Below are positions 9,826 through 51,922 of a stretch of 57,319 nucleotides of DNA, piece by piece; the first letter of the stretch is position 1, and the number at the start of each line of letters is the position of its first letter. The stretch comes from a virus. Location of the stretch: the IMG/VR virus record IMGVR_UViG_3300025520_000002; one strand, written 5' to 3'. The notes under the pieces were generated by a model. The model did no database searches. It was not told the origin of the DNA and saw only the letters and a list, made by a program, of their open reading frames with translations. The translations under genes and the position numbers were made by a program.

Positions 9826-9841
9826 CCTAACAAGTTAGCAG
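9826..9841 (-). promoter_or_regulatory. Motif copy CTGCTAACTTGTTAGG
   Basis: 8 nt upstream of the ATG at 9817. Confidence 0.6.
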
Positions 9842-9853
9842 TTGTTGTCCAGC

Positions 9854-10036
9854 TCAGCGCTGTAGGCGGTCGAGTAGCTCGTTGATCTTGTCGACGACAT
9901 CCGACAGAGAGGCGTCTGGGCGTAGGGGGGCGATGGCGCCCTTACGCCCCGTGATGACCTCGATGTTGTCCCGTACCGCATCCAACCACCGCTGGTCGGG
10001 GGCTTCCTTGGCGGGGGGGATGCTGAGCTTCTTCAT
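9854..10036 (-). CDS. Small hypothetical structural-module protein (60 aa)
   Basis: ORF overlaps the upstream gene stop by 4 nt; GC3 bias. Confidence 0.45.
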   Translation of the reverse strand: MKKLSIPPAKEAPDQRWLDAVRDNIEVITGRKGAIAPLRPDASLSDVVDKINELLDRLQR

Positions 10037-12015
10037 CGGGCACGCAGTCCTTCGGCAGTTTCAGCGAACTCGAACCGGTTCAACGGCACGTTACCGCTCA
10101 GGATGAACGTCACGTTGTCGGCCTTGTAGTCCGACGGCAGGCGGTGGGAGAGCCTGTCCACCACGCGTTGGCTGTACACGACGACCTCATCGACGACTGC
10201 CGTAACCCCCAGTCGGTCGAACGTGGCGGGCGGCACTGGTGCGAGCCCGCTGCCGCCGAGCATATATGTCCCGATAGGAGCGCCGCCCAGCTCTCCGCCA
10301 GTGTTACCCGCCGCCACCAACGCAGCGTTGGAGCTGAGAACTGCTTGGCGTGCAGCCTCCGCCGCTGCCCTCTCAGCGGGGGGCATGGTGAACTCGGCGA
10401 ACGCTTTGAACGCACCCATGTTGCCCGGCGACTCCTTCTGGAACAGCTTGGAAGTCCAGGTGTACGTGAGACGCGTGCCTGTATCCGCGTCGAACCGAAA
10501 CACCAGGTCGCCCCGCGCCATGATCAGGGAGCCGTCCTGCGGATCGGTGTACAGCGCCGTCACGTCAGCGGCGGAGCCGAGAGACACCGGGGCAGGTTCG
10601 TTGGGGCGGAAGAACCAGAACTCCGTACCTGTCGGTCCCTCGTAGGCGCCGACATAAGCCGTGCCGTACGCAGCGGCGAACATGGTGCTCGGATACACCG
10701 CGGTCCAGTCGCGCTCGGTGTAGCTCGCCTCGGTGACAATCACCGGGGACCCGGCGCCGAGCCACGCAAGCCCGAACCGCGTGGGGAACGCAACGCCGTT
10801 CGGGAAGCTGACCATCGCGCGGTTGGACAGACACGGCCATACCGACTTCACATCCTCCGGCTGCATCGACGAAGGATCGGCTCCGATGAACACTTCAGGA
10901 GTGCCGGCAGTGCCGACGACAACCATCGGGCCAGCGGTACGGCACGCCACGGGGTCCGACGCGAGCGGCGTGCGGTTGGCTGCCGGCCATGCATATGGCT
11001 TGTACGGCTCGGACATGCACAGCTCATTGCCCGAAATACCGACGAGCGCGCCGCTGGAGTGTCGGCACAGGGAGTGGAGGTCAACCGGCGGAGGTGGCGC
11101 GTCAAGCAGGGGTTCGACAGCGGTGCCGACGATCGCGGCGTCAATGGTTATCGGCAGCGCCGTACTGACGGGCTTGTCGGCAACGAGCTTGTAGCTGCCG
11201 TCCGCCTCCGACCAGTAGATCCGCCAGTGTGCCCCGGCAGTGTCATATGGCACGCTGCGCACGAAGCCGCCCGTGACCGGAAGTGGGTTGGTGGCGACAA
11301 GCACAGTGAACTGCGTTGTGGTGACAGACGCGACCGTCACCGCGCCCAGCGCGCCATGCTCCAGCGTATCACCCGCCCGAAGGCCCAGAGTATCCGGGGT
11401 AACGATCGTGAGCACGCCAGCAGCCCAGGAAGCCGAAGTGGTCGGGTAGTCGTTGGGTGGCGGCGCGCGCAGACCAGACACACTCCATGTGCCCGCGGTA
11501 CGCCCGGACACGACAGTGGCCGGAGACGCCTGGGACTCCTGTGTGCCCTGGGCGTTCACGAACGAGTACAGAATAGCCCTGTTCGCCACCTCTCCCGTGG
11601 TGCCGGTGAAAGCTGCTCCAGGTGCTGCGGTGGGCGCCGGCAAGCCGAGCATCCTCGACTCCATCGGGTACCCGTCCCGCCCCGCCAGTGCATAATTCGT
11701 AAACCTCGGCGGGCCATCTCCGGTGTAGTACACCGTGCCGCTGCGGTCCCCTGCTACCAGAGCCCGGACAGCGTCGACATGGAACGGCCAAGCGAGCCAT
11801 CGCATGCCGGTAGTAGCCACCGACTTGAACAGAGACTTCGCCGGACCAGACAGGCCAAGGAGTGACGCGAGCAGGAGCGGACCGTTGAGGGGCTCCAGTG
11901 CGCCAGACGTGAGGCGAGCGTTGTAGGCGAACTGGGCTTGGTTCGCCTGCAGCTGCGAAGGGTCGACGCGGGGGGCCATGCCCCCGAACGCCATGATGGT
12001 TCCGGACTCTGCCAT
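10033..12015 (-). CDS. Large tail structural protein (660 aa), nozzle/tail-tubular-B-like
   Basis: Size and position next to the fibre gene; beta-rich Gly/Thr/Ala composition. No catalytic motif seen. Confidence 0.4.
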   Translation of the reverse strand: MAESGTIMAFGGMAPRVDPSQLQANQAQFAYNARLTSGALEPLNGPLLLASLLGLSGPAKSLFKSVATTGMRWLAWPFHVDAVRALVAGDRSGTVYYTGDGPPRFTNYALAGRDGYPMESRMLGLPAPTAAPGAAFTGTTGEVANRAILYSFVNAQGTQESQASPATVVSGRTAGTWSVSGLRAPPPNDYPTTSASWAAGVLTIVTPDTLGLRAGDTLEHGALGAVTVASVTTTQFTVLVATNPLPVTGGFVRSVPYDTAGAHWRIYWSEADGSYKLVADKPVSTALPITIDAAIVGTAVEPLLDAPPPPVDLHSLCRHSSGALVGISGNELCMSEPYKPYAWPAANRTPLASDPVACRTAGPMVVVGTAGTPEVFIGADPSSMQPEDVKSVWPCLSNRAMVSFPNGVAFPTRFGLAWLGAGSPVIVTEASYTERDWTAVYPSTMFAAAYGTAYVGAYEGPTGTEFWFFRPNEPAPVSLGSAADVTALYTDPQDGSLIMARGDLVFRFDADTGTRLTYTWTSKLFQKESPGNMGAFKAFAEFTMPPAERAAAEAARQAVLSSNAALVAAGNTGGELGGAPIGTYMLGGSGLAPVPPATFDRLGVTAVVDEVVVYSQRVVDRLSHRLPSDYKADNVTFILSGNVPLNRFEFAETAEGLRAR

Positions 12016-12016
12016 G

Positions 12017-13174: not shown

Positions 13175-13544
13175 TACTGATCCTCAGTCTGTTTGCAAGG
13201 CTCAGCAGGTCGAGCCTGTACCACCCGTCGAAGTCGCCGCCAGCCAGCTGCGTTGCAACGTGGTCGAGCCCCTGCCCGTTCGGGCGCTCGAAGTACGCCG
13301 CTACGTAGCCGCGGTCCAAGAGCGCTCGGGTAAGCATGCGGATGGATCGCTTGTCCGCTGCCCCGTGGAACCCACGCAGCTCGCATACCCTCGACGTCCA
13401 CCGCTCAACGCTGCATACGGCGTCGTACGGCGGTCGCGGGTTGTCCGGTGTCGGCGCCTGGCTGTAGAACCGGCACATGGCCGATCCCTCCTCCCAGTGG
13501 AGTGCAGTGCCGTTGTCCGTATAGATCACTTCTTCAGCGCCCAC
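13155..13544 (-). CDS. Hypothetical protein (129 aa; start uncertain)
   Basis: ORF with coding-like bias; overlaps neighbours on both sides. Confidence 0.45.
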   Translation of the reverse strand: MGAEEVIYTDNGTALHWEEGSAMCRFYSQAPTPDNPRPPYDAVCSVERWTSRVCELRGFHGAADKRSIRMLTRALLDRGYVAAYFERPNGQGLDHVATQLAGGDFDGWYRLDLLSLANRLRISNDTPAS

Positions 13545-14696: not shown

Positions 14697-14703
14697 GTGT
14701 GCC

Positions 14704-15345: not shown

Positions 15346-15348
15346 GGA

Positions 15349-15600: not shown

Positions 15601-15629
15601 ATCGTGTTCTCCGGGGAGTGAAAGGTAGC

Positions 15630-15647: not shown

Positions 15648-15659
15648 TGAAAGCCCTGC

Positions 15660-16655: not shown

Positions 16656-16678
16656 GTCGATTCCTTTCGTCGTGGCCG

Positions 16679-16699
16679 CCTAACGTGTTAGCAGTTAGC
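16679..16699 (-). promoter_or_regulatory. Motif copy GCTAACTGCTAACACGTTAGG (tandem half-site plus full site)
   Basis: Contains the scaffold stop TAA; 23 nt upstream of the capsid GTG. Confidence 0.65.
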
Positions 16700-17979: not shown

Positions 17980-17992
17980 AGACCAACCATAT

Positions 17993-18015
17993 CCTAAGTT
18001 GTTAGCTTGTCAAGG
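17993..18015 (-). promoter_or_regulatory. Motif variant CCTTGACAAGCTAACAACTTAGG
   Basis: The motif's TAA is the portal stop codon. 13 nt upstream of the ATG at 17979. TTGACA-16-TATGGT can be read across it. Confidence 0.55.
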
Positions 18016-23721: not shown

Positions 23722-23763
23722 GTCTGCCTCCTGGGGCTGGGGGTCTACGTCCTTACATCATCA

Positions 23764-23774
23764 CGTGTTAGCAT
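23764..23774 (-). promoter_or_regulatory. Motif variant ATGCTAACACG
   Basis: 42 nt upstream of the ATG at 23721. Confidence 0.5.
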
Positions 23775-23812
23775 ATCAAGTGCTTGTCTTCTGTCCAGAG
23801 CATTGCTTTACC

Positions 23813-23828
23813 TGTCAAGGTGTTAGCT
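23813..23828 (-). promoter_or_regulatory. Motif variant AGCTAACACCTTGACA
   Basis: Starts within the TerL stop codon TAG. Confidence 0.55.
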
Positions 23829-25293
23829 ATGTCCAGCCGCCGGATGAGATCGTCTCGATCGGCTGCGCCTTGACGTCGTGCGCAGCCCCGACGAGTTCTG
23901 CCCCGCCGGCGTTCAGGCAGAGGTACTGGAAGCTGTCCGCCAGGTCCGACCAGGGGTGTGACTTCTCGGGCGAGACCTCCGTCTCCCCTTTGCTGTTGGT
24001 CTTGTAGCGATACTTGCCGGCGAGTGCCTGGACCAGGGGGGCGGCGTGCGTCGGGCACAGGAGAACCCCCGGCTCCCCGTCCACCAGTCGCGTAAGCAAT
24101 GCATCCACCGCGCCCAGTCGAGCTGGTAGTGTGTTGTTGGTGCATGCCGCCTTGACCATGAATCCTTCGGCCTTGTAGATGTCGGCCACTGTCCGTTCGT
24201 CGGTCTGCGCCCGCTGAAACGCCGCCGGGTCGACGAGCACTACGCTTCTACGCCCAGGGAACCGGTTGGCCAGCACGGGCTTGAGCTTTTCGCGGATGAA
24301 CCGAAGCGCCCCCATCCCCTCCGACGGGATGGCGTGGTAGACCAGCAGCCGGCCGCGGTAGTCCACCTCCCCGATCGACACTGCCGGTGAGAGCCCCGCA
24401 TCCGCCCCGATGAGCAGCAGCCCGCTCGACGCTGTCTGGATGAGCAGCTCGCTCTTGGCGACGTGGATGGATCGGTTGAACGCCTTGTGCACCGGCTGGC
24501 CGGAGAGCGACTTGCCGAACTTGGCGTGGATGTAGACGTCGATGTAGTCCTGCTTCTTCCCCGCGGCGAGGTTCTCGTAGTAGTCCGCCGGCAGGTACTT
24601 GATCCAGTCCGCCTCCGGCGACATGCCGCTGGGCTGGATGGTCACGTGGGTGTTCTCGGGCGGATCGGAGAGGAACGTCTCCCAGAACGTATCCATGTCA
24701 GGCGGGTTACTCGCCCCCCACAGGTGCGCGTTGGGCTGGCCGTCCTCGGTGACACACCCGCCGACCGGGCTCCCCTTCTTGTCGAGCCCCCACTCCGGTC
24801 GATGCGGCACCATCATCTTGTCCGGGTATCGGCCAAGACGCCCCTGCAGTGCTTCGAAGATGTCCTTGTTGTGCTCCCGGAACTCCTCCAACACGGCGAA
24901 ACTCGTCTGCAGCGAGAGCAGGCGGCGCACGTCGTCAGCGTCGTCCAGGCCGCGGAACAGCACCTCGCACTCCACGTCGTTGAACTGGAGCACGAACCGG
25001 TACTCCGTCTTGTAGAACGTGCCGGCCACGCCGTCCTGGTAGATCTTCAGGAAGTCCGGGATGCTCGTGTCGCGCAGCTGCTCCTTGGTGTTGCGCACCC
25101 ATACACACCGGGACCGCCGGATACCGTCCTTGCAGGGGGCCATGCGTGCCGCGTGGTACGCGATCTTCGCCAGGCTGGCCGATGTCTTGGTCGAGCCGAC
25201 CGGCCCCACCACCAGGCTGATGAATTTCTCCGAGGTGAAGAAGTCGTAAAGCGATGCAACCGGCTCGATGACCAGGTTGTTGTCGTCAGCCAC
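23827..25293 (-). CDS. terL: Terminase large subunit (488 aa)
   Basis: Walker A VGPVGSTKTS, Walker B-like FAVLEEF, and a C-terminal RNaseH-fold nuclease region (LLIGADAGLSP...). Confidence 0.85.
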   Translation of the reverse strand: MADDNNLVIEPVASLYDFFTSEKFISLVVGPVGSTKTSASLAKIAYHAARMAPCKDGIRRSRCVWVRNTKEQLRDTSIPDFLKIYQDGVAGTFYKTEYRFVLQFNDVECEVLFRGLDDADDVRRLLSLQTSFAVLEEFREHNKDIFEALQGRLGRYPDKMMVPHRPEWGLDKKGSPVGGCVTEDGQPNAHLWGASNPPDMDTFWETFLSDPPENTHVTIQPSGMSPEADWIKYLPADYYENLAAGKKQDYIDVYIHAKFGKSLSGQPVHKAFNRSIHVAKSELLIQTASSGLLLIGADAGLSPAVSIGEVDYRGRLLVYHAIPSEGMGALRFIREKLKPVLANRFPGRRSVVLVDPAAFQRAQTDERTVADIYKAEGFMVKAACTNNTLPARLGAVDALLTRLVDGEPGVLLCPTHAAPLVQALAGKYRYKTNSKGETEVSPEKSHPWSDLADSFQYLCLNAGGAELVGAAHDVKAQPIETISSGGWT

Positions 25294-25744: not shown

Positions 25745-26232
25745 CAGAACTCCTCTGTCGGAAGTGCGACCTCCGCGAGCGCGGTGAGGTCGATGTTGAT
25801 GTTCGGCACCGCGGTGGCAGTGCCTTCGATGACACGGCCCTTGGGGGGCTGGAGGTTGAAGGTGATGCTGAACTTAGGACCTGTGTCGGCCTGCACTGCC
25901 TGCTTGGCTCCAATGCCGGCGCCCTTGAACAGCACGTCCAGGTACTTGACGTCCACTTCCTTCAGGCTGCGTGCGGAGACCGCCTTGGTGCAGTGCTCCA
26001 TGTGAGCGATGGCATGCATGCGCACGCGCGCCTGGTCCATCTCCCCCGTCTTCTCCAGCTGGCGGCGCTGCTCGGTGACTGCACGCTCAAGCTCGGGGCT
26101 GCGCAGTAGGTAGGCGACCTGCTCGTTCTCGAATCCGAAGTCACGAAGCACCTGCTCCGGGTCGGTCATGCCGAACGCCAGGGCAAGCACTGCTTTGTGC
26201 GGGACGTCGTAGAGGGAGATTTGATTCGACAT
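25744..26232 (-). CDS. First late gene (162 aa), candidate small terminase subunit
   Basis: Called from position only (two genes upstream of terL, first gene of the operon); no diagnostic motif. Confidence 0.35.
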   Translation of the reverse strand: MSNQISLYDVPHKAVLALAFGMTDPEQVLRDFGFENEQVAYLLRSPELERAVTEQRRQLEKTGEMDQARVRMHAIAHMEHCTKAVSARSLKEVDVKYLDVLFKGAGIGAKQAVQADTGPKFSITFNLQPPKGRVIEGTATAVPNINIDLTALAEVALPTEEF

Positions 26233-26237
26233 GCTTA

Positions 26238-26249
26238 CCTGTTAGCACA
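26238..26249 (-). promoter_or_regulatory. Motif variant TGTGCTAACAGG
   Basis: 5 nt upstream of the ATG at 26232; just downstream of the minus-strand terminator. Confidence 0.5.
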
Positions 26250-26264
26250 TCTGAGGAGGCCTGT

Positions 26265-26294
26265 CAAAAAAGACGCCCTGGTGTGAGCAGGGCG
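26265..26294 (-). terminator. Rho-independent terminator on the minus strand, about 30 nt upstream of the first late gene
   Basis: Minus-strand sense CGCCCTG-ctcacac-CAGGGCG followed by TCTTTTTTG. Confidence 0.7.
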
Positions 26295-26351
26295 AAGAGG
26301 AGACCACAAGGAGGTGAATCGAGTGTACGGGTGGCTGGTTGGCGGGTCAAG

Positions 26352-26369
26352 CTGCTAACGGTTTAGCAG
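26352..26369. promoter_or_regulatory. Palindromic motif variant CTGCTAAcggtTTAGCAG
   Basis: 7-bp perfect arms, inside the non-coding leader. Confidence 0.5.
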
Positions 26370-26769
26370 GAGGTTGGGGATAGGGCTAGCTCTGTGGGCG
26401 ATACCTAAGGGGGGTACCCCCCTGCGCGAGCGTGGTCCGGGTAGGGGGGTGGTAGGGCCGCCCGCCGGGCCATCTGGTGTCGGCGTGGCATAGGTGCAGG
26501 ACCGGCAAAGCACCGCCGGGGGGTCAGAGTTCTACAGAACGCCCGATCCCTGCCGTACAGGGTAAGAGCATGCACCGCACGACACGCGGGATTGTCTCCG
26601 GTAGGCGAAGCCATAGCGCGGACGGTGCGCACAAACCCATAGCGGGCGAGTGCCGCAACCTGAAGAACGTAGAGAATTGGCACGCCGAGTCGTCGAATGG
26701 TTCCGACCATGCAGGCCGTTAAAATCGGTAGCACTGGGGCGCCCAAGACACTAAATAGCTGTTTGACTA

Positions 26770-26794
26770 CATCACATGCGCGTTTCGTGTGATG
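26770..26794. promoter_or_regulatory. Inverted repeat CATCACA-N11-TGTGATG, candidate operator upstream of the first rightward gene
   Basis: 7-bp perfect arms; sits between a TTGACT hexamer (26763..26768) and the motif copy at 26803. Confidence 0.35.
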
Positions 26795-26802
26795 CACTCA
26801 AC

Positions 26803-26817
26803 CTGCTAACTACTTAG
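26803..26817 (+). promoter_or_regulatory. Motif copy CTGCTAACTACTTAG
   Basis: 10 nt upstream of the ATG at 26828; overlaps the RBS. Confidence 0.6.
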
Positions 26818-26827
26818 GAGTGTAACC

Positions 26828-27605: not shown

Positions 27606-27761
27606 CTATATATATATAAATAGTATAAATAGTATAATAAGACGCCGATTTAGTAGCACCGCCATTGGCAGCCCGACCCTGCGCGGGTGCAGCTGAGCCG
27701 GAGCGTGTTAGTCCATGGCCGAGGGTGCTGTAATTAGACGTCTTTTTGTACTATTTATACT
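27606..27761. repeat. AT-rich island with a 25-bp imperfect inverted repeat (27622..27646 and 27737..27761, 22/25 match, 90-bp spacer)
   Basis: Left arm AGTATAAATAGTATAATAAGACGCC. The reverse complement of the right arm is AGTATAAATAGTACAAAAAGACGTC. A (TA)6 run at 27606..27618 and a perfect TATAAT at 27633..27638. Confidence 0.8.
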
Positions 27762-27774
27762 AAATGGCGTGTAG

Positions 27775-27861
27775 ATGTCGTTTGCGGGCATGCATAACTA
27801 GCCGAAATAGACAGTTCGCCCCCGTCGCACCCCCAGCCCGGCCCTCAAGTCGGGCTTTTTT
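27775..27861 (+). ncRNA. Candidate short transcript ending at an intrinsic terminator (5' end hypothetical)
   Basis: Terminator AGCCCG-gccctcaagt-CGGGCT-TTTTT at 27835..27861, downstream of the AT-rich repeat arm (TATACT at 27756..27761). No convincing ORF. Confidence 0.25.
27835..27861 (+). terminator. Rho-independent terminator
   Basis: 6-bp GC stem, 10-nt loop, T5 run. Confidence 0.6.
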
Positions 27862-27901
27862 ACGTCTTGACCCTGCCGACCAGCCCATAAGGAGCCCCGC
27901 C

Positions 27902-28497: not shown

Positions 28498-28542
28498 ACG
28501 GCTCGGCCACTGCGAGCACTCCGCCCGCTGTGAAGTATTTAT

Positions 28543-28559
28543 CTGCTAACACCTTGACA
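28543..28559 (+). promoter_or_regulatory. Motif copy CTGCTAACACCTTGACA
   Basis: First of two tandem copies upstream of 28610. Confidence 0.65.
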
Positions 28560-28581
28560 TCATCAGGGCGCTTGGCCTAAC

Positions 28582-28596
28582 CTGCTAACACCTTAC
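28582..28596 (+). promoter_or_regulatory. Motif copy CTGCTAACACCTTAC
   Basis: 13 nt upstream of the ATG at 28610. Confidence 0.65.
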
Positions 28597-28609
28597 CAAG
28601 GAGGCACTC

Positions 28610-30502: not shown

Positions 30503-30649
30503 ATGCTCACCCTCTGGAGACTTCACAACTGGTGGCTGGATCAGCTGGTCACCTTCGCCAACTCACCACTCGACCACAAGGAGGACACGCTTCTCGGACT
30601 CATCTGTTTCGCTGTGCTCTGCAGTCTGCCGCATCTGCTGGACCTGTAG
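30503..30649 (+). CDS. Micro-ORF, hydrophobic peptide (48 aa)
   Basis: Translated by eye: MLTLWRLHNWWLDQLVTFANSPLDHKEDTLLGLICFAVLCSLPHLLDL. Starts 2 nt after the preceding stop. Confidence 0.35.
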   Translation: MLTLWRLHNWWLDQLVTFANSPLDHKEDTLLGLICFAVLCSLPHLLDL

Positions 30650-30703
30650 TACCTAACACCTCAACACGTAGTACCCACAACCCGCTCACCCAAGGAGATA
30701 TCC

Positions 30704-31244: not shown

Positions 31245-31246
31245 AT

Positions 31247-31260
31247 CTGATAACACCTGA
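31247..31260 (+). promoter_or_regulatory. Motif variant CTGATAACACCTGA
   Basis: Follows the hairpin at 31218..31244; 24 nt upstream of the ATG at 31285. Confidence 0.5.
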
Positions 31261-31284
31261 ACAGAGCACCATTCAGGAGGAAGC

Positions 31285-33921: not shown

Positions 33922-33928
33922 CCAAGGA

Positions 33929-33940
33929 GTTAACACCTTA
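33929..33940 (+). promoter_or_regulatory. Motif variant GTTAACACCTTA
   Basis: Abuts the ATG at 33940. Confidence 0.4.
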
Positions 33941-35169
33941 TGAGTTACGCATCCAACGACGAAGGTGGTGAGGAGATCGCCATCAGAGCCGACGTCAAGC
34001 GACTGCTCCACATGATGAGCTACCGGCGCAAGCATGGTAGCCAGACAGAGGTCGACTTCATCACCGACTACCTCATACCGCTGCATGGCCTCTACAGCCT
34101 GCACGCCCCGCCCGCCAAGGAAGGCGAGGACATGGGTCCGGCCATGTGCTACGTCATCGACATCGGCACACCGACCGTCGTGTTCTCCAGCCACGTGGAC
34201 ACCGTCCACTCAGGTGGGGGGATGCAGGTGGTTGAGTACGACGCCAACCTGCAGGTGGCATACAAGCAGGACAACCAGCCGCTGGGTGCCGATGACGCTG
34301 CGGGTGTGTGGCTGCTCCTGGAGATGATCAGCGCCGGCGTGCCGGGACGTTACATGTTCCACCGTGGTGAAGAGTGCGGCGGTCTGGGCAGCAGGATGGT
34401 CGCCCAACACCACAAAGATCTGTTCGATGGCATCACCCACGCCATTGCATTCGATCGCAGAGGTGACTGCTCTGTCATCACCCACCAGCGGGGCGGGCGT
34501 TGCTGCTCGGACAAGTTCGCCGATGAGCTTGCGTGTCGACTGACTGCCTCGACGGGGCACACCCTTTCGGCGGACGACACGGGGAGCTTCACCGACACGG
34601 CCAACTACACCGACATCATCGGTGAGTGCACCAACGTCTCAGTCGGCTATCTGGATGAGCACTCCGGCAAAGAGATGCTGGACATCGAGTACCTGCTCAA
34701 GCTGCGCGATGCGTGCTGCGACCCTGCCATGTGGGTCGACCTGCCTGTGGTGCGCAAGGCTGGTGAGTACGAGCCTCGGACGTATGGCTACGGCGGCTAC
34801 GGTAGCTACGGCCGGCTGATGGATGAGTACGAGGAGGCGAGCTACCTCGGGTGGCTCGCACGGCACTGGCCCGACGAGACCCCGCAACGCAAGCTCTCAC
34901 TGGTGGAGAAGGAACTGGAGGGAGACCTGACTTACTCCGAGGTGCGACGGGCCAGCGGCGCCGACCTCAAGGAGTGGGCGATGCGCGCCAAGGCGAGCGA
35001 CGTGGTCGAGACCATCCTCAACCTGTCAGACCTGGTGTCCACGTACGAAGACGAGCTTGCAGAAGCGCCCGGCGATGAGTGGATCGGGTATGCCAGCGCG
35101 CTGGAGGATCTGCTGGAGGCCAACGGTATCCGCTTCGACCACCTCTCTATCGGCGGCGGCAGCAGTTGA
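33940..35169 (+). CDS. M28/M42-like co-catalytic zinc peptidase (409 aa)
   Basis: Ordered ligand-like motifs SSHVDTVH, LGADDAAGVW, HRGEECGGLGS, AFDRRG and GYLDEHSG. Confidence 0.6.
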   Translation: MSYASNDEGGEEIAIRADVKRLLHMMSYRRKHGSQTEVDFITDYLIPLHGLYSLHAPPAKEGEDMGPAMCYVIDIGTPTVVFSSHVDTVHSGGGMQVVEYDANLQVAYKQDNQPLGADDAAGVWLLLEMISAGVPGRYMFHRGEECGGLGSRMVAQHHKDLFDGITHAIAFDRRGDCSVITHQRGGRCCSDKFADELACRLTASTGHTLSADDTGSFTDTANYTDIIGECTNVSVGYLDEHSGKEMLDIEYLLKLRDACCDPAMWVDLPVVRKAGEYEPRTYGYGGYGSYGRLMDEYEEASYLGWLARHWPDETPQRKLSLVEKELEGDLTYSEVRRASGADLKEWAMRAKASDVVETILNLSDLVSTYEDELAEAPGDEWIGYASALEDLLEANGIRFDHLSIGGGSS

Positions 35170-36643: not shown

Positions 36644-37446
36644 TGAAACGCACGAACTTCGATGTCTTCACCGACCTGTTCAATGCGAACGGCTACGTCA
36701 CCAACGCCATGCTGGAGGAGGCGGGGGTCAAATATCCGTCCTCGTACACCACGTCGTGGCAGCGCGAGGTGCCCCCGCGCATCGTGCAGACCAACAACCG
36801 CAAGCCCTACCGCTACGCATTGCCGCAGGCCGCAGTGAAGCCGGCGATCGAGGCGACTCCGCCGCCCCTGCCTGACGTCGACCTGGACTCAGTACTGTTC
36901 AAGCTCGACGACGCGCCCGCCGTCCTTGACGGCACGGGTCACGTGGCGCCGGGTCCCACACCGGCAAAGCCTGCACCCGAGCTTCCGGTCTACACGCCGG
37001 ACATCAACGTCCTCATCAGTCAGGTGGCCGACCACATCGCTGCACAGATCGCCCACCAAGTACGTCTTCGCCTGCAGGACTACCTCATCCAAGCTGTGCC
37101 GGAAGACCTGCCGGTGTCCGAAGAAGAGGCCGTCACTCCTCCCCCTGTCCGTAAGGCCAAGGGAGACAGGCTTCACGTGTGCATCGCCGGCCTCCTGCCG
37201 CAGCAGGCGCAGATCATCAACAACGAGTTCGGCAAGGACATGCGCCTGTCGTTCATCCACAGCAACGCCAACCCAAAGGACGCCAAGGGTCTGCTCGCCC
37301 ACGCCGATGCCGCTCTCATCATGACGAAGTTCGTGGGGCACTGGCTCGATGGCGTCGTCTCCAAAGCAGGCATCCCTGTGCAGCGCATCACCGGGGGCAT
37401 GAGTCGGCTGCGTGACAGCTTGACTTCGCTCTACTGTACGGCCTAA
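36643..37446 (+). CDS. Putative DNA-binding protein with a DUF2325-like C-terminal domain (267 aa)
   Basis: Start MKRTNFD by ATGA coupling. C-terminus RLHVCIAGLLP...ADAALIMTKFVGHWL...GIPVQRITGGMS matches the DUF2325 pattern (from memory). Confidence 0.45.
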   Translation: MKRTNFDVFTDLFNANGYVTNAMLEEAGVKYPSSYTTSWQREVPPRIVQTNNRKPYRYALPQAAVKPAIEATPPPLPDVDLDSVLFKLDDAPAVLDGTGHVAPGPTPAKPAPELPVYTPDINVLISQVADHIAAQIAHQVRLRLQDYLIQAVPEDLPVSEEEAVTPPPVRKAKGDRLHVCIAGLLPQQAQIINNEFGKDMRLSFIHSNANPKDAKGLLAHADAALIMTKFVGHWLDGVVSKAGIPVQRITGGMSRLRDSLTSLYCTA

Positions 37447-37447
37447 A

Positions 37448-37471
37448 CTGCTAACACCTTATCTGATAAGG
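37448..37471 (+). promoter_or_regulatory. Motif copy CTGCTAACACCTT fused to the 15-bp palindrome CCTTATCtGATAAGG
   Basis: Starts 2 nt after the stop at 37446; the palindrome arm overlaps the RBS of the gene at 37480. Confidence 0.65.
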
Positions 37472-37479: not shown

Positions 37480-37734
37480 ATGGTAGGAGGTAACAACCCG
37501 TTCTATGACCCCATGAGGGATCAGTACTTCAGGGCCGCATATGGCCAGGGGGCACAGCTCACGAACCAGCAGCGGGCGGACCTCGGAGCTGTGAGTCTGT
37601 CCGAAATAGAGGCTCGCCTGAGACACTTCGAGCAGCAGCAAAAAACCATGGCCCAACAACGCGCCGTGTCCGGACCCGCGTCGCAGGAGGATGAAACACA
37701 CAAGCTGCGCCAACAACTGCTCTTGCTTTGCTAA
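37480..37734 (+). CDS. Hypothetical protein (84 aa)
   Basis: RBS AAGGAGAGAGG; its stop TAA lies inside the next motif copy. Confidence 0.5.
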   Translation: MVGGNNPFYDPMRDQYFRAAYGQGAQLTNQQRADLGAVSLSEIEARLRHFEQQQKTMAQQRAVSGPASQEDETHKLRQQLLLLC

Positions 37735-37740
37735 CACCTG
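37728..37740 (+). promoter_or_regulatory. Motif variant TTGCTAACACCTG
   Basis: The motif's TAA is the stop of 37480..37734; 17 nt upstream of the ATG at 37758. Confidence 0.55.
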
Positions 37741-37757
37741 AACACAAGGAGAGAACC

Positions 37758-40779: not shown

Positions 40780-40783
40780 AGCC

Positions 40784-43263: not shown

Positions 43264-45215
43264 AACTTCTCACCCTCGACTTCGAGACGTTCTACGACAC
43301 CGACTACTCCCTGAAGAAGATGACCACGGAGGAGTACATCCGTGACCCGCGCTTCGAGGTGATTGGCTGTTCGACGCAGATGGGCAACGCGCCGGTGGAC
43401 TGGATGACCGCCTACCCCGGCCGGCTCGAAGCTGTGTTCAAGAAACTGGACTGGTCGAACATCGCCGTGCTTGCGCACAACACCAAGTTCGACGGCGCCA
43501 TCCTGGAGTGGAAGTACAAGGTGCGGCCGGCGTTTTACTTCGACACCCTGAGCATGGCCCAGGCGATCCACGGGCTGGAGGGCAGCCTCTCACTCGATGC
43601 ACTGACCCAGCGGTATGGGCTCGGCCAGAAGGGCGATGAGGTGATCAACGCCAAGGGAAAGAGGCTGGCGGACTTCTCGGCAGCGGACCTCGATCGCTAT
43701 GGCGGGTACTGCAGCAACGATGTTGTGCTAACACGTAAGCTACTCGATGCACTGCGCCGGCAAGGGGACTGGCACTTCCCGACCGGTGAGCTGGCAATCA
43801 TCGACCTGATGCTGCGGATGTTCATCCGTCCATCCATAGCGCTCGACAGTGCGCAGCTGGAGACGCACCTGGCTCAGGTCATTGCCCGCAAAGAGAAGCT
43901 CCTGTCCAAGGTCGAGGAAGTCGCCGGCAAGGACGCCCTGATGTCCAACGAGAAGCTGGCTGTAGTGCTCCGCGGGCTTGGCGTCGAACCGCCGATGAAG
44001 CCGTCTCCTGCCGCCCTGAAGCGCGGGGAGGAGAAGCTGACCTACGCCTTCGGCAAGTCAGACCTGGAGTTCAAGGCGCTGCTCGACCACGACGACGAGC
44101 GCGTGCAGGCGGTTGTCGCTGCACGTATGGGGGTGAAGTCCACCCAGGCGGAGACCCGTGCCTACAGGTTCATCGGGATGGCCAAGCGGGGACTGATGGC
44201 CGTGCCGCTGCGCTACTACGCTGCACACACCGGGCGGGCCGGCGGGGACGACAAGGTGAACCTGCAGAACCTCCCATCCAGAACCGGGGACCTCTCACTG
44301 CGGCGGTCACTGATCGCCCCTCCGGGTCACAGCATCGTCACGTGCGACTCAGCACAGATCGAAGCGCGGGTGCTCGCCTACGTGGCCGGCCAGTGGGATC
44401 TGGTCGAAGACTTCCGACGGAAGGTCGACATCTACTCGTCCTTCGCCTCCGACGTTTACGGCTACCCGGTCGACCGAAAGGCCAAGGCCATCGACGAGAA
44501 CGGCAAGGAGTACCACCCACACAAGCTGGAGGGCATGGTCGGCAAGGAAGGCATTCTCGGCCTGGGCTTCGGGATGGGGGGCGATAAGTTCTGCCTCCGC
44601 CTTAAGCAGCAGGCGGGGATCACCATGGAGCCAGAGAAAGCCGCCGAGGTCGTGCAGGTGTACCGCACCAGGTTCGCCGAGGTGCCCAAGCTATGGAAGC
44701 AAGCACAACGCGCCATCGAGCAGATGGTCAAGGGCTACACCGCGACGATCGGTGTCGGTATCAAGCTCCAGTGCTACCCGGCGGACGACTTTGGCCCTGC
44801 CCGTATCGCCCTGCCCAATGGAATGTTCCTCCGCTACCCGGAGCTGCGAGCTGAGGCCGGCGGCAAGTACGGCGTCGAGTATAAGTACACCGCGCGCAAA
44901 GGACGCAAGGTCGAGACGATCTACACCTACGGCGCTAAGGTGGTGGAAAATATCGTCCAGGCCCTGGCCCGCATCATCGTGTTCGATCAGCTGCTCGGCA
45001 TAGATCGGTGGATGGGAAAGCAGGGCATCGGGACAGATGAGTATCTGAATGTTGCGATGACCGTGCACGATGAAGGCGATGCCGTGGCGCCGGATCACCT
45101 CGTGGAAGAGACCGAAGCGGCAATGCTGCGCATCATGTCCACCCCTCCGAAGTGGGCACCGGAATTGCCTATCGCCGCCGAGACCGGGGTCGGCAAGAAC
45201 TACGCAGACGCATAA
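43260..45215 (+). CDS. Family-A DNA polymerase with a 3'-5' exonuclease domain (651 aa)
   Basis: Exo I LTLDFETF; pol motif A CDSAQIEARVLAY; motif B KEGILGLGFGMG; motif C MTVHDE. Confidence 0.9.
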   Translation: MKLLTLDFETFYDTDYSLKKMTTEEYIRDPRFEVIGCSTQMGNAPVDWMTAYPGRLEAVFKKLDWSNIAVLAHNTKFDGAILEWKYKVRPAFYFDTLSMAQAIHGLEGSLSLDALTQRYGLGQKGDEVINAKGKRLADFSAADLDRYGGYCSNDVVLTRKLLDALRRQGDWHFPTGELAIIDLMLRMFIRPSIALDSAQLETHLAQVIARKEKLLSKVEEVAGKDALMSNEKLAVVLRGLGVEPPMKPSPAALKRGEEKLTYAFGKSDLEFKALLDHDDERVQAVVAARMGVKSTQAETRAYRFIGMAKRGLMAVPLRYYAAHTGRAGGDDKVNLQNLPSRTGDLSLRRSLIAPPGHSIVTCDSAQIEARVLAYVAGQWDLVEDFRRKVDIYSSFASDVYGYPVDRKAKAIDENGKEYHPHKLEGMVGKEGILGLGFGMGGDKFCLRLKQQAGITMEPEKAAEVVQVYRTRFAEVPKLWKQAQRAIEQMVKGYTATIGVGIKLQCYPADDFGPARIALPNGMFLRYPELRAEAGGKYGVEYKYTARKGRKVETIYTYGAKVVENIVQALARIIVFDQLLGIDRWMGKQGIGTDEYLNVAMTVHDEGDAVAPDHLVEETEAAMLRIMSTPPKWAPELPIAAETGVGKNYADA

Positions 45216-45328
45216 ACAGCGGCGCATTCCTAACGACAATTCACGTGGAGCCAGACATAGAATGTCCAGATATCCAAACGTCAAGTCTTGCGTACCTACT
45301 TGGCATGGTTGCATATCCCACCCACCAT

Positions 45329-45344
45329 AGCTAAACTGTTAGCA
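45329..45344 (+). promoter_or_regulatory. Motif-related dyad AGCTAAACTGTTAGCA
   Basis: 20 nt upstream of the ATG at 45365. Confidence 0.4.
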
Positions 45345-45364
45345 ACAAGAGGGAGAACCAACAC

Positions 45365-45916: not shown

Positions 45917-45953
45917 AAAAAATCTGCGCCGTACTATGCGGCGTCCACCCGAA

Positions 45954-45969
45954 CTGCTAACATGTTAGC
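45954..45969 (+). promoter_or_regulatory. Motif copy CTGCTAACATGTTAGC, containing the perfect 14-bp palindrome GCTAACATGTTAGC
   Basis: Overlaps or abuts the start of the Cas4-like nuclease gene. Confidence 0.65.
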
Positions 45970-45970
45970 C

Positions 45971-46627
45971 ATGACAGCCTGGTCCCACTCAGCACTCAAT
46001 CAGTTCGAGACGTGCCCCCGTCAGTACTACCTCCTCCGCGTGTCCAAGCAGGCAAAGGACGTGAAGGGGGAAGCGGCGCTGTGGGGTGACGCGGTGCATA
46101 AACACCTCGAAGCCAGAGCGAAGAACGGCACGCCGCTTCCGAGCTATCTCAACTACCTCAACCCGATCGTCGAGCGCATCCTCGCCAGCCCTGGCGAGAA
46201 GATCGTCGAGCACAAGATCACCATCACACACGACTACTCCCCTACCAGCTGGTTCGCCAAGGACGCATGGTGCAGATCCATCATCGACCTCGGTGTGGTG
46301 GGCGAGACCTCCGCAACACTGCTCGACTGGAAGACGGGTAAGCGCAAGCCTGACTCCGACCAGATGGCACTGTTTGCTGGCATGGCCTTCGTCGAGTACC
46401 CGAACGTCGAAGTCATAGACACAGGGTTCGTGTGGATCAAAGACAAGAAGGTTGACAGGGATCGGTTTACACGGTCCGATGTCGCGGCAATATGGGGCGG
46501 ATTCCTGCCGCGTATTGCACGGCTGGAGCACGCTTTCAAGACCAACAACTGGCCCGCTACGCCAGGGGGCCTCTGCAAAAAATACTGCCCAGTGGGTAAG
46601 TCGTTGTGCCCATATTGGGGGGGATAA
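45971..46627 (+). CDS. Cas4/RecB-like PD-(D/E)XK nuclease with a 4-Cys cluster (218 aa; alternative start 45962)
   Basis: IIDLGVV...LLDWKTGKRK nuclease core. Cys in ETCPRQYY plus CKKYCPVGKSLCPYW. Confidence 0.75.
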   Translation: MTAWSHSALNQFETCPRQYYLLRVSKQAKDVKGEAALWGDAVHKHLEARAKNGTPLPSYLNYLNPIVERILASPGEKIVEHKITITHDYSPTSWFAKDAWCRSIIDLGVVGETSATLLDWKTGKRKPDSDQMALFAGMAFVEYPNVEVIDTGFVWIKDKKVDRDRFTRSDVAAIWGGFLPRIARLEHAFKTNNWPATPGGLCKKYCPVGKSLCPYWGG

Positions 46628-46640
46628 CTTGGGACCGATC

Positions 46641-46847
46641 ATGATGGCACTGACACACCTGACAGACACCGAACTCATCCAGCACGCTCTTTCGCAGGAG
46701 CACCTATCTGACCTTGAGCGCGAACTGCTAACACGTCTTGAACTGTCAATCGACCTTTTGGATGAGGCCGGCTTGTTGGCTGGGGACGTGGTGCAGTGTC
46801 CGAGCTGCGGGAGTGAGGTGGGGGTACTGCCTGAGGTAGCTCTGTGA
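46641..46847 (+). CDS. Hypothetical small protein (68 aa) with a CPSCG motif
   Basis: Internal ATG with a plausible protein sequence; GTGA overlap with the next gene; contains an in-gene motif copy. Confidence 0.4.
   Translation: MMALTHLTDTELIQHALSQEHLSDLERELLTRLELSIDLLDEAGLLAGDVVQCPSCGSEVGVLPEVAL
46725..46739 (+). promoter_or_regulatory. Motif copy CTGCTAACACGTCTT (inside a small ORF)
   Basis: Exact 10-mer core, sense orientation. Confidence 0.45.
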
Positions 46848-47209
46848 GCAAGACCCCCGAGGGGAGGGTCAAGGACGCGGTGAAGCTTTTCCTCCATGAG
46901 CAAGGGCTGATCCGCGCTGCTTCCCGTAGGGACACCTGGCCCGAGACCGTCCGAGGCTGGTATTACATGCCGGTGCAGAACGGGATGGGTGTCTCGGGTA
47001 TCCATGACTTCGTCGGTTGTATGGAGGGACGGATGTTCACCATCGAGACCAAGGCGCCGGGCAAGCTCAGCGGCGTGACCGAGAACCAGAAGGACCGAGG
47101 CTACGAAATGCAGCTCGGCGGCGGGCAGCCGTTCTACGTCGATAGCGCCGACAAACTTCGGGAGCAGTGGTCCGAATGGTTGGCGCGCTGGCTATCTGCT
47201 AACACGTAG
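46844..47209 (+). CDS. VRR-NUC domain nuclease (121 aa)
   Basis: GIHDFVGCMEGRMFTIETKA (D...ExK) core. Confidence 0.75.
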   Translation: MSKTPEGRVKDAVKLFLHEQGLIRAASRRDTWPETVRGWYYMPVQNGMGVSGIHDFVGCMEGRMFTIETKAPGKLSGVTENQKDRGYEMQLGGGQPFYVDSADKLREQWSEWLARWLSANT

Positions 47210-47210
47210 T
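47196..47210 (+). promoter_or_regulatory. Motif copy CTGCTAACACGTAGT
   Basis: Spans the last codons and stop of the VRR-NUC gene; 4 nt before the ATG at 47214. Confidence 0.6.
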
Positions 47211-47213
47211 GAT

Positions 47214-47636
47214 ATGCCGACAGGTAGAAAACCCCGCTCGACCAGTGGACAGTGGTCAGCCGCCGGCTCTGCTTGGTCAGAGTTCGAGCACCAACCACCG
47301 CCGGAGCCCGTCCGTAAGCTCAACGAGGAGGAGACCCTGCTCGTTGCCATCCTCCACCGGGGCCTGATCGACTACGCGACTGTCCTGGGGGTACGCGCCG
47401 GCACAGTCCGACCGACCCGAGAACTCCCAGAGATGCTCGACGCAGAGCGATGGGTCAAGAGCCGCGCAAACCACCCCTTCTCATTCGAGTTCTGCTGCTG
47501 GCAAGGACTCGGCCAAGACCCGGAACTCATCCGGGAGACCACCACGAAGCACTGGCAGCGACTGCTGACGAAGGACGCAGCGGTGATCTTCGCTACCTAC
47601 ACCCCCCCGAAGGACACGGAAAATGCTGGTTTCTGA
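47214..47636 (+). CDS. Hypothetical protein (140 aa)
   Basis: Coding-like bias; overlaps the helicase start by 14 nt. Confidence 0.5.
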   Translation: MPTGRKPRSTSGQWSAAGSAWSEFEHQPPPEPVRKLNEEETLLVAILHRGLIDYATVLGVRAGTVRPTRELPEMLDAERWVKSRANHPFSFEFCCWQGLGQDPELIRETTTKHWQRLLTKDAAVIFATYTPPKDTENAGF

Positions 47637-50217: not shown

Positions 50218-50224
50218 CCATTAA

Positions 50225-50238
50225 CAGCTAACGTCTTA
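50225..50238 (+). promoter_or_regulatory. Motif variant CAGCTAACGTCTTA
   Basis: 8 nt after the helicase stop; 16 nt upstream of the ATG at 50255. Confidence 0.45.
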
Positions 50239-50254
50239 TCACATGGAGGTAAAG

Positions 50255-50638
50255 ATGCAAGTCAATGAGCTTGTAGCGAAGTACGTCCAGCTTCGGGACA
50301 AGAAGGCCCAGCTGGAGCAAGCGCAGAAGGATAAGCTCGCACCCATCAACGCGATGCTCGACAAGATCGAGGGTGTGCTGCTCAACCAGTTCGATCAGCT
50401 GGGTGTCGACTCGATGAAGACCGAGGCCGGCACTGCCTACACCACTAGCAAATCCAGTGCTACCGTTGCCGACAGGGATGCGTTCCTGCAGACGTTCGTG
50501 ATCCCGAACGAGGCGTGGGAGTACCTGACCAACCACGTCAGCAAATCTGCCGTCGAAGCCTACAAGGCGGCCAACGAAGAACTGCCACCGGGCATCAACT
50601 GGTCCGAAGTGCGCACCATCAACATCCGCAGGAGCTAA
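50255..50638 (+). CDS. Coiled-coil phage protein (127 aa), Gp157-like
   Basis: RBS GGAGG before MQVNELV; family assignment from memory only. Confidence 0.3.
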   Translation: MQVNELVAKYVQLRDKKAQLEQAQKDKLAPINAMLDKIEGVLLNQFDQLGVDSMKTEAGTAYTTSKSSATVADRDAFLQTFVIPNEAWEYLTNHVSKSAVEAYKAANEELPPGINWSEVRTINIRRS

Positions 50639-50641
50639 CAC

Positions 50642-51598
50642 ATGAGCAATGACCTGATCGCACTGAAGCAAAACCTGCCGGCCTTCCTCGCCGGCGCTGC
50701 GGCAGCGAACTCCGACCTGACCGGACACGCCGGCGCAGGCTTTCCCGCTATGTCCATCAAGGGCAAGGTATTCACCCTGGTGCGTGGCGGCGAGCGCCAG
50801 ATCCTGATGTCTCCGGCCGACCCGGATGCGCCGGCGTCGAGCATCGAGGTGATTATCCTCAAGGCCAACCCGAAGAACTCGAAGACCTTCTATGCCGAAG
50901 CATACGTCGACGGCTCGGACGGCAACCCGACGTGCTACTCGAATGACGGTGTGAAGCCGGCGCCTGACGCTGCGGAGCCCCAGTGCAAGACCTGTGCTGC
51001 CTGCCCGCAGAATGTGTGGGGCTCGCGCACTGGTGACAACGGCTCCAAGGGCAAGGCATGCCAGGACAACGCCCGCGTCGCCATCGCCGCTCCGGATGCC
51101 ATCAACGACCCGATGCTGCTGCGCGTGCCGCCTGCATCGCTCAAGCCGCTGTCCGAGTTCGGTGCTGCGCTGGAGAAGCGCGGTGTGCCGTACAACGCAG
51201 TGATCACCAAGCTCGGCTTCGACCACACCCAGGCCACTCCGAAGCTCACGTTCAAGGCAGTCAACTACGTGACCGCAGAGCAGTTCGCCGCAGTCCAGGA
51301 ACAGCTGGCCGGAGATGTCGTGGGCCAGATCATTGGCACTGTCGCCGTTGCAGTCGCTCCGGATGACGGCTTCGAGATGCCGGCGGGTGAGCCGCCTGCT
51401 GCAGCCAAGAAGGCCGAGGACAAGCCTGCCGCCAAGCCGAAGGCAGCGGCTCCCAAGCCGAAGGCCGCGCCGGCAACTCCGCCGGAGCCTGAAGTCGAAG
51501 CGACGAACCCGGCAGTAGTGGTGACCAGCGAAGATGAAGCTGGCGGTGATCTGCTGGGTGATATCGACGCAATGCTCGGCGCCCTCGACGACGCCTAA
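50642..51598 (+). CDS. Conserved-looking replication-module protein with a 4-Cys motif and an Ala/Pro/Lys-rich acidic tail (318 aa); possible ssDNA-binding or annealing protein
   Basis: CYSNDG...CKTCAACPQNVWGS...GKAC; low-complexity tail KPAAKPKAAAPKPKAAPATPPEPE ending in an acidic DDA. Confidence 0.3.
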   Translation: MSNDLIALKQNLPAFLAGAAAANSDLTGHAGAGFPAMSIKGKVFTLVRGGERQILMSPADPDAPASSIEVIILKANPKNSKTFYAEAYVDGSDGNPTCYSNDGVKPAPDAAEPQCKTCAACPQNVWGSRTGDNGSKGKACQDNARVAIAAPDAINDPMLLRVPPASLKPLSEFGAALEKRGVPYNAVITKLGFDHTQATPKLTFKAVNYVTAEQFAAVQEQLAGDVVGQIIGTVAVAVAPDDGFEMPAGEPPAAAKKAEDKPAAKPKAAAPKPKAAPATPPEPEVEATNPAVVVTSEDEAGGDLLGDIDAMLGALDDA

Positions 51599-51640
51599 GT
51601 GATGACGCCCCCGGTAGGTGCCGGGGGCAACAGGACGCAT

Positions 51641-51907
51641 ATGAACAAAATCAAGCAGACACTCAAGGATACCGGCGTCTCCCAGGGCGAGTTCGGGCAC
51701 CTGGTCGGTGTGAGCCGCGTTACGGTCGGCTGGTGGTGCAACGACAGGCACCTACCGAGCAAGTGGATCAAGCCGACTGTCGACAAGGTGCTCGCGCGCC
51801 TGTCTGCTGCGCTGGCTGACGGCTCGCTCGTCCCCCTCCAAGACTGCTCGTCCTCCGCCGAACGACTGGAACTGCTCAATGCCGTGATCCTCTCCGACCC
51901 CGCCTAA
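51641..51907 (+). CDS. XRE/Cro-type helix-turn-helix protein (88 aa; alternative starts 51599 and 51602)
   Basis: GVSQGEFGHLVGVSRVTVGWWCNDRHLPS is a typical HTH_XRE segment. Confidence 0.6.
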   Translation: MNKIKQTLKDTGVSQGEFGHLVGVSRVTVGWWCNDRHLPSKWIKPTVDKVLARLSAALADGSLVPLQDCSSSAERLELLNAVILSDPA

Positions 51908-51922
51908 CTGCTAACACCTTAG
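51908..51922 (+). promoter_or_regulatory. Motif copy CTGCTAACACCTTAG
   Basis: Begins right after the stop at 51907; 21 nt upstream of the ATG at 51944. Confidence 0.65.

Follow-up and report, generated by a model that had tools for sequence, protein, structure and literature searches.

Conserved 22-bp dyads dispersed over the gene boundaries of a temperate phage: a candidate operator network

What purpose could be served by some twenty copies of one short sequence placed at gene boundaries throughout a phage genome? The question is raised by the IMG/VR virus record IMGVR_UViG_3300025520_000002, a stretch of 57,319 nucleotides (hereafter the window) in which a motif centred on GCTAAC recurs on both transcriptional arms. 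The original prediction, made from the letters of the window, had proposed a network resembling the stoperators of mycobacteriophages, an mRNA operator or a new class of promoter. The analyses presented below indicate that the motif is a 22-bp imperfect dyad, kept at orthologous positions in related phages and overlapping promoter-like boxes. With a probability of roughly 0.5, we regard it as the site of a single dimeric phage regulator, forming a genome-wide operator network over host-type promoters.

The window represents a complete, circularly permuted phage genome with 62.9% G+C. Its ends overlap by 127 nt (window 1-235 / 57193-57319), as a circular assembly would give, so that the genome length is approximately 57.2 kb, and assemblies of at least three further samples contained nearly identical contigs. 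The structural genes encode an SU10-type portal, a Phage_capsid_4 major capsid protein and a GP4 gp77-like adaptor, and the genes for replication and integration encode a family A DNA polymerase, an SNF2 helicase, a DUF927 primase and a tyrosine integrase. Late genes are read leftward from 26232 and early genes rightward from 26828. The attP site adjoins the integrase gene and contains the 3' end of a tRNA gene (GGTTCGATTCCCGCCGCCTCCACCA at 96 and 57288), which together with the tyrosine integrase identifies the phage as temperate. The closest cultured phage is Pseudomonas phage Rollin, with a TerL identity of only 43%.

The exact 10-mer CTGCTAACAC is present in seven copies (16685 on the minus strand; 28543, 28582, 37448, 46725, 47196 and 51908 on the plus strand) versus 0.10 expected from dinucleotide shuffles, and the 8-mer CTGCTAAC in 11 copies versus 1.02 expected. 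The counts and coordinates originally reported for both words were exact, and the enrichment that had been claimed on a rough estimate was borne out. Near-matches were likewise recovered at, or within a few bases of, the places assigned to them (23765, 23820 and 26239 on the minus strand; 31247, 33929, 37728 and 50225 on the plus strand), and so was the 14-bp palindrome at 45956-45969. The copy placed at 17993 is a real site, of which this position marks the mirror arm; the core lies at 18001-18006 on the minus strand. The description of the motif as a 10-13-mer had to be given up, as the alignment of GCTAAC-centred copies revealed a conserved unit of 22 bp, the imperfect dyad A.CTGCTAAC.NN.GTTAGCAG..T, which spans positions -4 to +17 numbered from the G of GCTAAC (single positions naming a copy below refer to this G). 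Within it, T at +9 is nearly invariant, and T(-1) is mirrored by A(+14) and A(-4) by T(+17). The arms are unequal: the upstream one is near-invariant, with 86-100% conservation per position, while the downstream one is degenerate (41-95%) and occurs in two forms, the dyad-like (G/C)TTAG(C/G) or CCT(C/G)AACAC. Among 64 unique sites, mirrored positions are complementary in 39-95% of cases at six of the eight pairs, and position 7 is T in 13 and C in 34. Position +14 is A in 80% of sites. As judged from its form, a dyad of 22 bp implies a dimeric binder.

A position weight matrix (PWM) built only from the relatives described below gave 28 hits in the window, 22 of them dyads, compared with a mean of 0.23 and a maximum of 2 in 200 shuffles. 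With respect to transcription, the strong half of the dyad is upstream at all 19 of these sites that lie on the two genome arms (p = 4e-6). With a PWM trained on the window, 21 of 22 dyads are sense-oriented. The earlier statement that every copy reads in the sense direction thus fails at a single place, the dyad at 45326-45347 (minus strand), the only one with its stronger arm antisense, and this reversed dyad is itself conserved (in L028). Between co-directional genes there are 27 gaps of 8 nt or more, and 13 of these contain a sense copy; in the same survey, the gaps upstream of the integrase gene and of a gene for a helix-turn-helix (HTH) protein had no copy. The distance to the start codon ranges from overlap with the ATG up to 117 nt and is mostly 0-45 nt. 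As had been noticed, the stop codons of the portal, scaffold and TerL genes and of the open reading frame (ORF) 37480-37734 lie inside or directly against the motif. Placement at gene boundaries applies to most copies, two being intragenic: 46727 (46723-46744, plus strand) and 43727 in polA (43723-43744, plus strand).

Relatives were reached in other metagenomes through TerL, an 878-amino acid (aa) protein and the SNF2 helicase. The motif was found in at least four lineages, all uncultured (L018/L019/L027, L023/L024/L028, L025/L026/L030 and L029), which share with the window about 50-86% identity at the protein level and about 78% at the DNA level. All four carry the motif at the same gene boundaries as the window, so the conservation that the original prediction had named as decisive is present. 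When 16 orthologous site groups were stacked, the motif was retained in each of them while flanks and spacers drifted. The spacing within a tandem pair (28541-28562 and 28580-28601, plus strand) is constant at 39 bp in the window, L018, L023 and L026, and at the site preceding the PDDEXK nuclease gene (45952-45973, plus strand) every lineage has T at position 7 and the ATG at +15. The intragenic copy 46727 reads CTG CTA ACA CGT in five lineages, that is, through the rare codons CTA and ACA; CTA accounts for 1.4% of leucine codons, and the retention of this copy despite it shows that selection acts on the nucleotides as such. The polA copy also uses rare codons and occurs only in the window and L023/L028. 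The motif is absent from distant relatives (phages with TerL identity of 62-69%, IMG/VR phages with SNF2 identity of 36-43%, and Rollin), and no comparable dispersed repeat was seen in them.

Under strict sigma70 criteria (a -35 box matching at least 4 of 6 positions, a -10 box TAnnnT and a spacer of 16-18 nt) the genome contains only nine sigma70-like promoters, and the motif overlaps six of them versus 0.10 expected, with the -10 box at motif positions -6, -6, -3, +2, +10 and +15. Similarly, seven of the 24 copies of TTGACW in the genome lie on the same strand within about 45 nt of a motif. The motif centre falls at approximately -21 to +1 relative to the predicted starts, so a bound protein would exclude RNA polymerase (RNAP).

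The register varies between sites. The motif occupies the promoter spacer at 18006 (17989-18010, minus strand; TTGACA-16-TATGGT), where the portal TAA lies in the core and which is kept in L018, and at 9839 (9822-9843, minus strand, core 9834-9839; sigma70-like TGGACA-16-TAGGAT); in both cases an ATG, at 9817 in the second, follows 6 nt past the -10. It covers the -10 at 23772 (23755-23776, minus strand), past TerL, where the left arm overlies the -10 of TGGACA-16-TATGCT; at 26246 (26229-26250, minus strand), at the start of the late operon, in TTGACA (26262-26267)-N17-TAACAG; and at 50227 (50223-50244, plus strand), where it forms the -10 of TTGACT-17-TAACGT in all four lineages with variable spacer sequence. 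The sites 23772 and 26246 are kept in L018 and L023. In the tandem pair, the right arm of the first copy, 28545, is the -35 TTGACA of TTGACA-18-TAACCT, and the second copy, 28584, lies at +1 of the same promoter. The copy 37450 (37446-37467, plus strand) lies at +1 of TTGACT-18-TAAACT, and at both +1 sites the -10 hexamers TAACCT and TAAACT are fused to the 5' edge of the motif. In every motif-bearing relative the orthologous sites show these boxes again, with unchanged registers and variable spacers; relatives that lack the motif do not have them. For the genes starting at 26232, 17979, 9817 and 45971 the start codon follows the -10 by 6-7 nt without a Shine-Dalgarno (SD) sequence, which suggests leaderless mRNAs, and by this pattern several genes downstream of the motif appear to be leaderless.

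The other copies are found in various settings. On the leftward arm, the copy at 16675-16696 (minus strand) separates the scaffold stop codon from the major capsid gene, and a weaker one at 23810-23831 (minus strand), specific to the window, overlies the TerL stop codon, its right arm being TTGACA. The most symmetric copy, CTGCTAACGGTTTAGCAG (26350-26371, plus strand), is located in the gene-free control region and abuts the -35 of a leftward TTGACC-17-TACACT. The copy at 26801-26822 (plus strand) precedes the first early gene and contains an SD in its right arm. Further along the rightward arm, all on the plus strand, are a weaker copy with the non-dyad right arm CCTCAACAC upstream of a gene for a 163-aa protein (30648-30669), a copy directly 3' of a GC-rich hairpin and upstream of the 878-aa gene (31245-31266), a degenerate copy between the SD and the ATG of a peptidase gene (33925-33946), and a copy with a non-dyad right arm whose core contains the stop codon of the upstream gene (37726-37747). 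The copy at 47194-47215 (plus strand) overlies a stop codon, and the ATG of the next gene is at +16 in all lineages. The highest-scoring copy (51906-51927, plus strand) lies upstream of the primase gene.

We propose that the motif is recognised by a phage-encoded, sequence-specific dimer and that each site would consist of one strong and one weak half-site. Set on or next to sigma70-like promoters at most transcription-unit boundaries of both arms, the copies would allow the bound regulator to cover the -35, the spacer, the -10 or the +1 and thereby to switch them off. Where no promoter is recognisable, the copies would be weaker operators or would hold up read-through as roadblocks. The strong half (TGcTAAC..) might, at some sites, double as an extended -10-like element, so that promoter and operator would be fused, and such fusion would leave several downstream genes leaderless. 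The invariance of the left arm, together with the lack of compensatory changes in the right one, points to protein half-sites rather than a hairpin, and the reversed dyad at 45326-45347, being conserved, suggests that recognition takes place on DNA. Since many copies are found inside conserved sigma70-type promoters, they would be operators at least as much as stoperators.

The best candidate for the binder, on circumstantial grounds, is an 88-aa XRE-type HTH protein (51641-51907, plus strand), the only recognisable DNA-binding protein in our scans; its link to the motif is inferred. It matched HTH_31 with E = 1.6e-4 (below Pfam's cut-off) and a PHROG annotated as transcriptional regulator with E = 2.7e-5. 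In the three lineages from which the gene could be retrieved, the HTH segment is invariant and the rest of the protein shows 68-78% identity. The stop codon of the gene abuts the strongest motif site (51906-51927), and its operon apparently starts at the motif-overlapped promoter 50206. This position is suggestive, if only circumstantially, of autoregulation. Neither an L5-type two-domain repressor nor a C1-like one was found among the approximately 50 proteins scanned, some small ORFs remaining outside the scan.

Several observations weigh against this operator network. Small XRE proteins are common, and no obvious promoter belongs to the HTH gene itself. A recognisable -35 or -10 is missing from about half of the motif copies. 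The term host-type promoter presupposes the standard sigma70 consensus. A symmetric dimer alone leaves unexplained why the strong arm is upstream at 21 of 22 sites; either a polar roadblock or a promoter function could lie behind this constant polarity. Finally, the start codons at +14, +15 and +16 without an SD, the A(+14) found in 80% of sites, the TGn-TA core and the upstream hairpins would suit a promoter equally well.

The promoter alternative would make the motif a new class of promoter, a single -10-like element TGcTAACAc with transcription starting around +14, used either by the host RNAP with an unrecognised sigma-like or redirecting phage factor or by an unrecognised phage polymerase, in the manner of the T4 late or T7-type promoters set before many genes. 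It is unlikely in our view and nevertheless worth keeping. It would account for the strict sense orientation, for a conserved stretch of about 19-22 bp that ends at A(+14), and for the ATGs at +14 (first late gene), +15 (PDDEXK gene) and +16 (the gene after the copy 47194-47215), which hold in all lineages and have no SD. The TGn-TA geometry of the core, the TTGACW -35 located exactly 17 nt upstream at two site groups, the GC hairpins or terminators directly upstream of some copies, and a number of copies per genome like that of T7 or T4 late promoters also fit. In the most specific form of this proposal the motif would be the promoter of a system invisible to profiles (a divergent sigma-like or redirecting factor, or a new polymerase), starting at +14 on both arms and giving several leaderless mRNAs, with the dyad contributed by a superimposed second regulator; we hold this version to be quite improbable. 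The dyad symmetry is otherwise unexplained by a promoter, and one of the conserved copies points the other way. At the equivalent of -7, where sigma70 needs T, the base is C in most copies. The genes at three copies could not be served by a start at +14, since an SD lies inside the motif at 26805 and 9839 and the motif separates SD and ATG at 33929. A better promoter has the motif in its spacer at 18006 and 9839 and precedes it at 28584 and 37450. Known extended -10 sigma70 promoters with leaderless mRNAs are resembled by the 45956 (TGcTAACAT), 50227 (TGcTAACGT with a -35 at 17 nt) and 26246 groups, in which the ATG follows 6-8 nt downstream. A formal test (TGn plus TAnnnT, with T at -7) fits the 45956 group, where position 7 is T and the extended -10 is proper, the 50227 group and a few single copies; most copies fail, carrying C, A or G at -7 and no -35, and the motif is over-conserved for a -10 box and dyad-symmetric.

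As had originally been stated, no RNAP or sigma factor is recognisable: scans of about 50 proteins against Pfam, PHROGs and NCBIfam found none, and no RNAP domain was seen in the large proteins of the phage. A highly divergent sigma-like factor, of which T4 gp55 is an example, could have been missed, and no assignment was obtained for several proteins of 140-320 aa. The 878-aa orphan (31285-33921) was considered as a hidden RNAP and rejected, as it gave no Pfam hit, no sequence match in the PDB, no match to a polymerase profile and no match to a PDB fold better than E = 0.09. Its AlphaFold2 model had a predicted local distance difference test (pLDDT) score of 37 at first and, with an alignment of 24 sequences, 80-97 over residues 440-860, and the protein resembles no solved polymerase. 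A sigma54 reading of CTGCT was also discarded, the GG box being 2 nt out of register and missing at most sites.

The stoperator idea in its strict sense, in which an asymmetrically bound repressor would halt elongating RNAP in an orientation-dependent manner and keep the prophage silent as in L5 and Bxb1, finds a counterpart in the approximately 22 boundary sites dispersed over both arms, in their orientation along transcription, in the stop codons inside or against the motif and in the temperate nature of the phage. Of the three readings originally offered, the stoperator-like one came nearest, and what survives of it is a dispersed, oriented and conserved network. The site is a 22-bp dyad instead of a 13-bp asymmetric sequence, no two-domain repressor of the L5 type was detected in the protein scans, and for the many copies in promoters an operator is the simpler explanation; true stoperators are therefore rather improbable. 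Action of the motif in RNA, as a hairpin, processing site, translational operator or antisense target near ribosome-binding sites, is very unlikely. The sense-strand copies near start codons had favoured the mRNA operator of the original prediction, and the dyad could fold as a short hairpin. The changes in the right arm break the pairing and are never compensated, though, while the left arm stays invariant; the distance to the start codon is as variable as described above, some copies lie upstream of the predicted transcript start or in promoter spacers, one conserved copy is reversed, and no Rfam hits were obtained. A candidate small RNA at 27643-27862 contains GTGTTAG, which would suit an antisense partner; this candidate was rejected because the sequence is not kept in L018, L023 and L026. 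We give hardly any credence to a host regulator, such as a LexA-type or other global dimeric repressor, whose site the phage would have co-opted. The palindrome is of the general CTG...CAG type and the phage encodes only one recognisable DNA-binding protein. The classical LexA box is CTGT-N8-ACAG, unlike the spacing CTG-N12-CAG of the motif, and a host factor would not usually show so strong an orientation bias or have 22 copies of its site in a single phage.

Dispersed networks of this kind have precedents, so that the supposed novelty among phages of Gram-negative bacteria does not hold: P1 carries 22 dispersed asymmetric 17-bp operators of the C1 repressor with the consensus ATTGCTCTAATAAATTT (PMC8546580), and the T1-like phages T1, TLS and Stevie have 16-21 intergenic repeats of 21-22 nt co-oriented with transcription (PMC4319613, PMC11447400). 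The phage analysed here is, like P1, temperate, with about 22 scattered copies of one operator serving many separate promoters (promoter activity being in our case inferred). The P1 site is asymmetric, whereas the present motif is a dyad of unrelated sequence and no C1-like protein was detected. To our knowledge, a strict sense orientation of the P1 operators has not been described.

The authors of the T1-like studies explicitly likened the repeats to stoperators, and the question of what they do is still listed there as open (PMC4319613, PMC11447400). Compared by description only, they share with the motif about 20 co-oriented intergenic copies and the lack of an own RNAP or sigma factor; they belong to virulent siphophages, lie about 76 nt upstream of start codons and have the consensus aaATAGCACnnnTTGnTAAAA, whereas the motif is mostly 0-45 nt from start codons and overlaps promoter boxes. 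In cluster A mycobacteriophages, gp71 of L5 binds operators and oriented stoperators, the defining properties of which are given in PMC9283540. The similarities are considerable: more than 20 sites in promoters and short intergenic spaces of both arms, orientation following transcription, a temperate lifestyle and no phage RNAP. On the other side, in L5 a monomer binds a 13-bp asymmetric sequence, in contrast to the 22-bp dyad; the L5 repressor, of about 180 aa, combines an HTH at its N-terminus with a stoperator domain at its C-terminus, in contrast to the single 88-aa HTH protein detected here; and virion type and likely host differ. The dyad, its unrelated sequence and the lack of a homologous repressor indicate that the motif is not a member of the L5 or P1 families; by analogy, its layout resembles the way in which these dispersed repressor networks work. 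The repressor of the Streptomyces phage phiC31 reportedly binds conserved inverted repeats present in many intergenic copies, which would make it similar in having a dyad operator dispersed in a temperate phage and different in its actinobacterial host and its sequence.

Genome-wide networks built on a single site have been well characterised in few phages only, namely P1, and L5 with its relatives. The clade described here offers a clean comparative set, with one dyad at 16 orthologous positions in lineages whose proteins share only 50-80% identity, site-specific registers of the promoter boxes, apparent leaderless starts and a single obvious candidate binder. If the motif is an operator, a small XRE-type dimer can silence or time a whole 57-kb phage from about 22 sites, and the results would provide a rule for the polarity of such sites. 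If it is a promoter, the orphan proteins include a hidden transcription factor or polymerase. In both cases the motif can serve as a practical marker of transcription-unit boundaries for the annotation of this large group of uncultured phages.

The control region between the two arms contains other elements. A leftward sigma70-like promoter, TTGACC-17-TACACT (26322-26350, minus strand), is followed, about 30 nt on, by a strong intrinsic terminator (26274-26294, minus strand), beyond which lies the late-operon promoter; L018 and L023 retain both the -10 of the leftward promoter and the terminator. By analogy with lambda PR'-tR', the layout hints at control of the late genes by antitermination. 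A gene-free block of about 330 nt (26470-26800) is 94-100% identical in the window, L018 and L023, compared with about 75-85% for the neighbouring coding DNA. It showed no Rfam match, folding z-score signal, codon periodicity or match in phage GenBank records. As a partner of the motif the block was dismissed, being absent from the motif-bearing L026 and giving no structural, coding or database signal; it might represent a DNA element acting in cis, or a module exchanged recently. The AT-rich segment 27500-27870 includes a perfect TATAAT at 27631, the inverted repeat CCCGCAAACG (27572 on the plus strand, 27788 on the minus strand), two AGACGTCT palindromes (27519 and 27736) and a strong terminator at 27835-27862. 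At the same place the relatives have lineage-specific repeats, AATGTGACA about eight times in L026 and GCGTCTAG 11 times in L021. Possible roles of the segment are those of an iteron-bearing replication origin, of an immunity region or of a gene for a small RNA of about 200 nt. Reading the lineage-specific repeats of the 27.4-28.1 kb region as immunity operators would have spoken against the motif as the site of the repressor; they fit origin iterons equally well, and the argument was dropped. Further on, the leader GTAGTACCCACAACCCGCTCAC.CAAGGAG (30668-30700) downstream of the motif copy 30652 is conserved across lineages (L023 and L026 orthologues), which suggests an additional element in the 5' untranslated region of the 163-aa gene.

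The 878-aa protein belongs to a family of more than 1000 proteins without an assigned function or a Pfam family, with a conserved core at residues ~415-850 and two CxxC pairs. Its gene is always found behind a GC hairpin and a copy of the motif.

Some of the relatives have repeats of their own. The distant relatives L020-L022 contained local repeat clusters only. In Rollin (L031), five copies of the 26-bp palindrome AAAAGGTAGCAAGTTACTACCTTTT lie within 500 bp (positions 1-500), clustered and not dispersed; they are probably operators or iterons. In L007, a 21-kb stretch of an IMG/VR contig from a distant SNF2-bearing phage, the 18-bp palindrome TTTGCAATCGATTGCAAA occurs 5-6 times. Searches with megablast against phages, of GTDB with SNF2, of JGI metagenomes with the primase and of IMG/VR with the HTH protein gave no useful relatives.

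No exact match to the tRNA fragment of attP was present in GTDB genomes. The close relative L028 (JGI 3300073941) resides on a contig of 470,807 bp, in which the integrase gene still adjoins the gene for a large virion protein. This is the arrangement of the circular form, which indicates that the phage is not integrated at attP there, and the contig may be a chimeric or concatemeric assembly. Beside the integrase gene of the window, the repeat TGGTCAACA occurs at 50, 200 and 212, and these copies are probably arm-type sites of the integrase.

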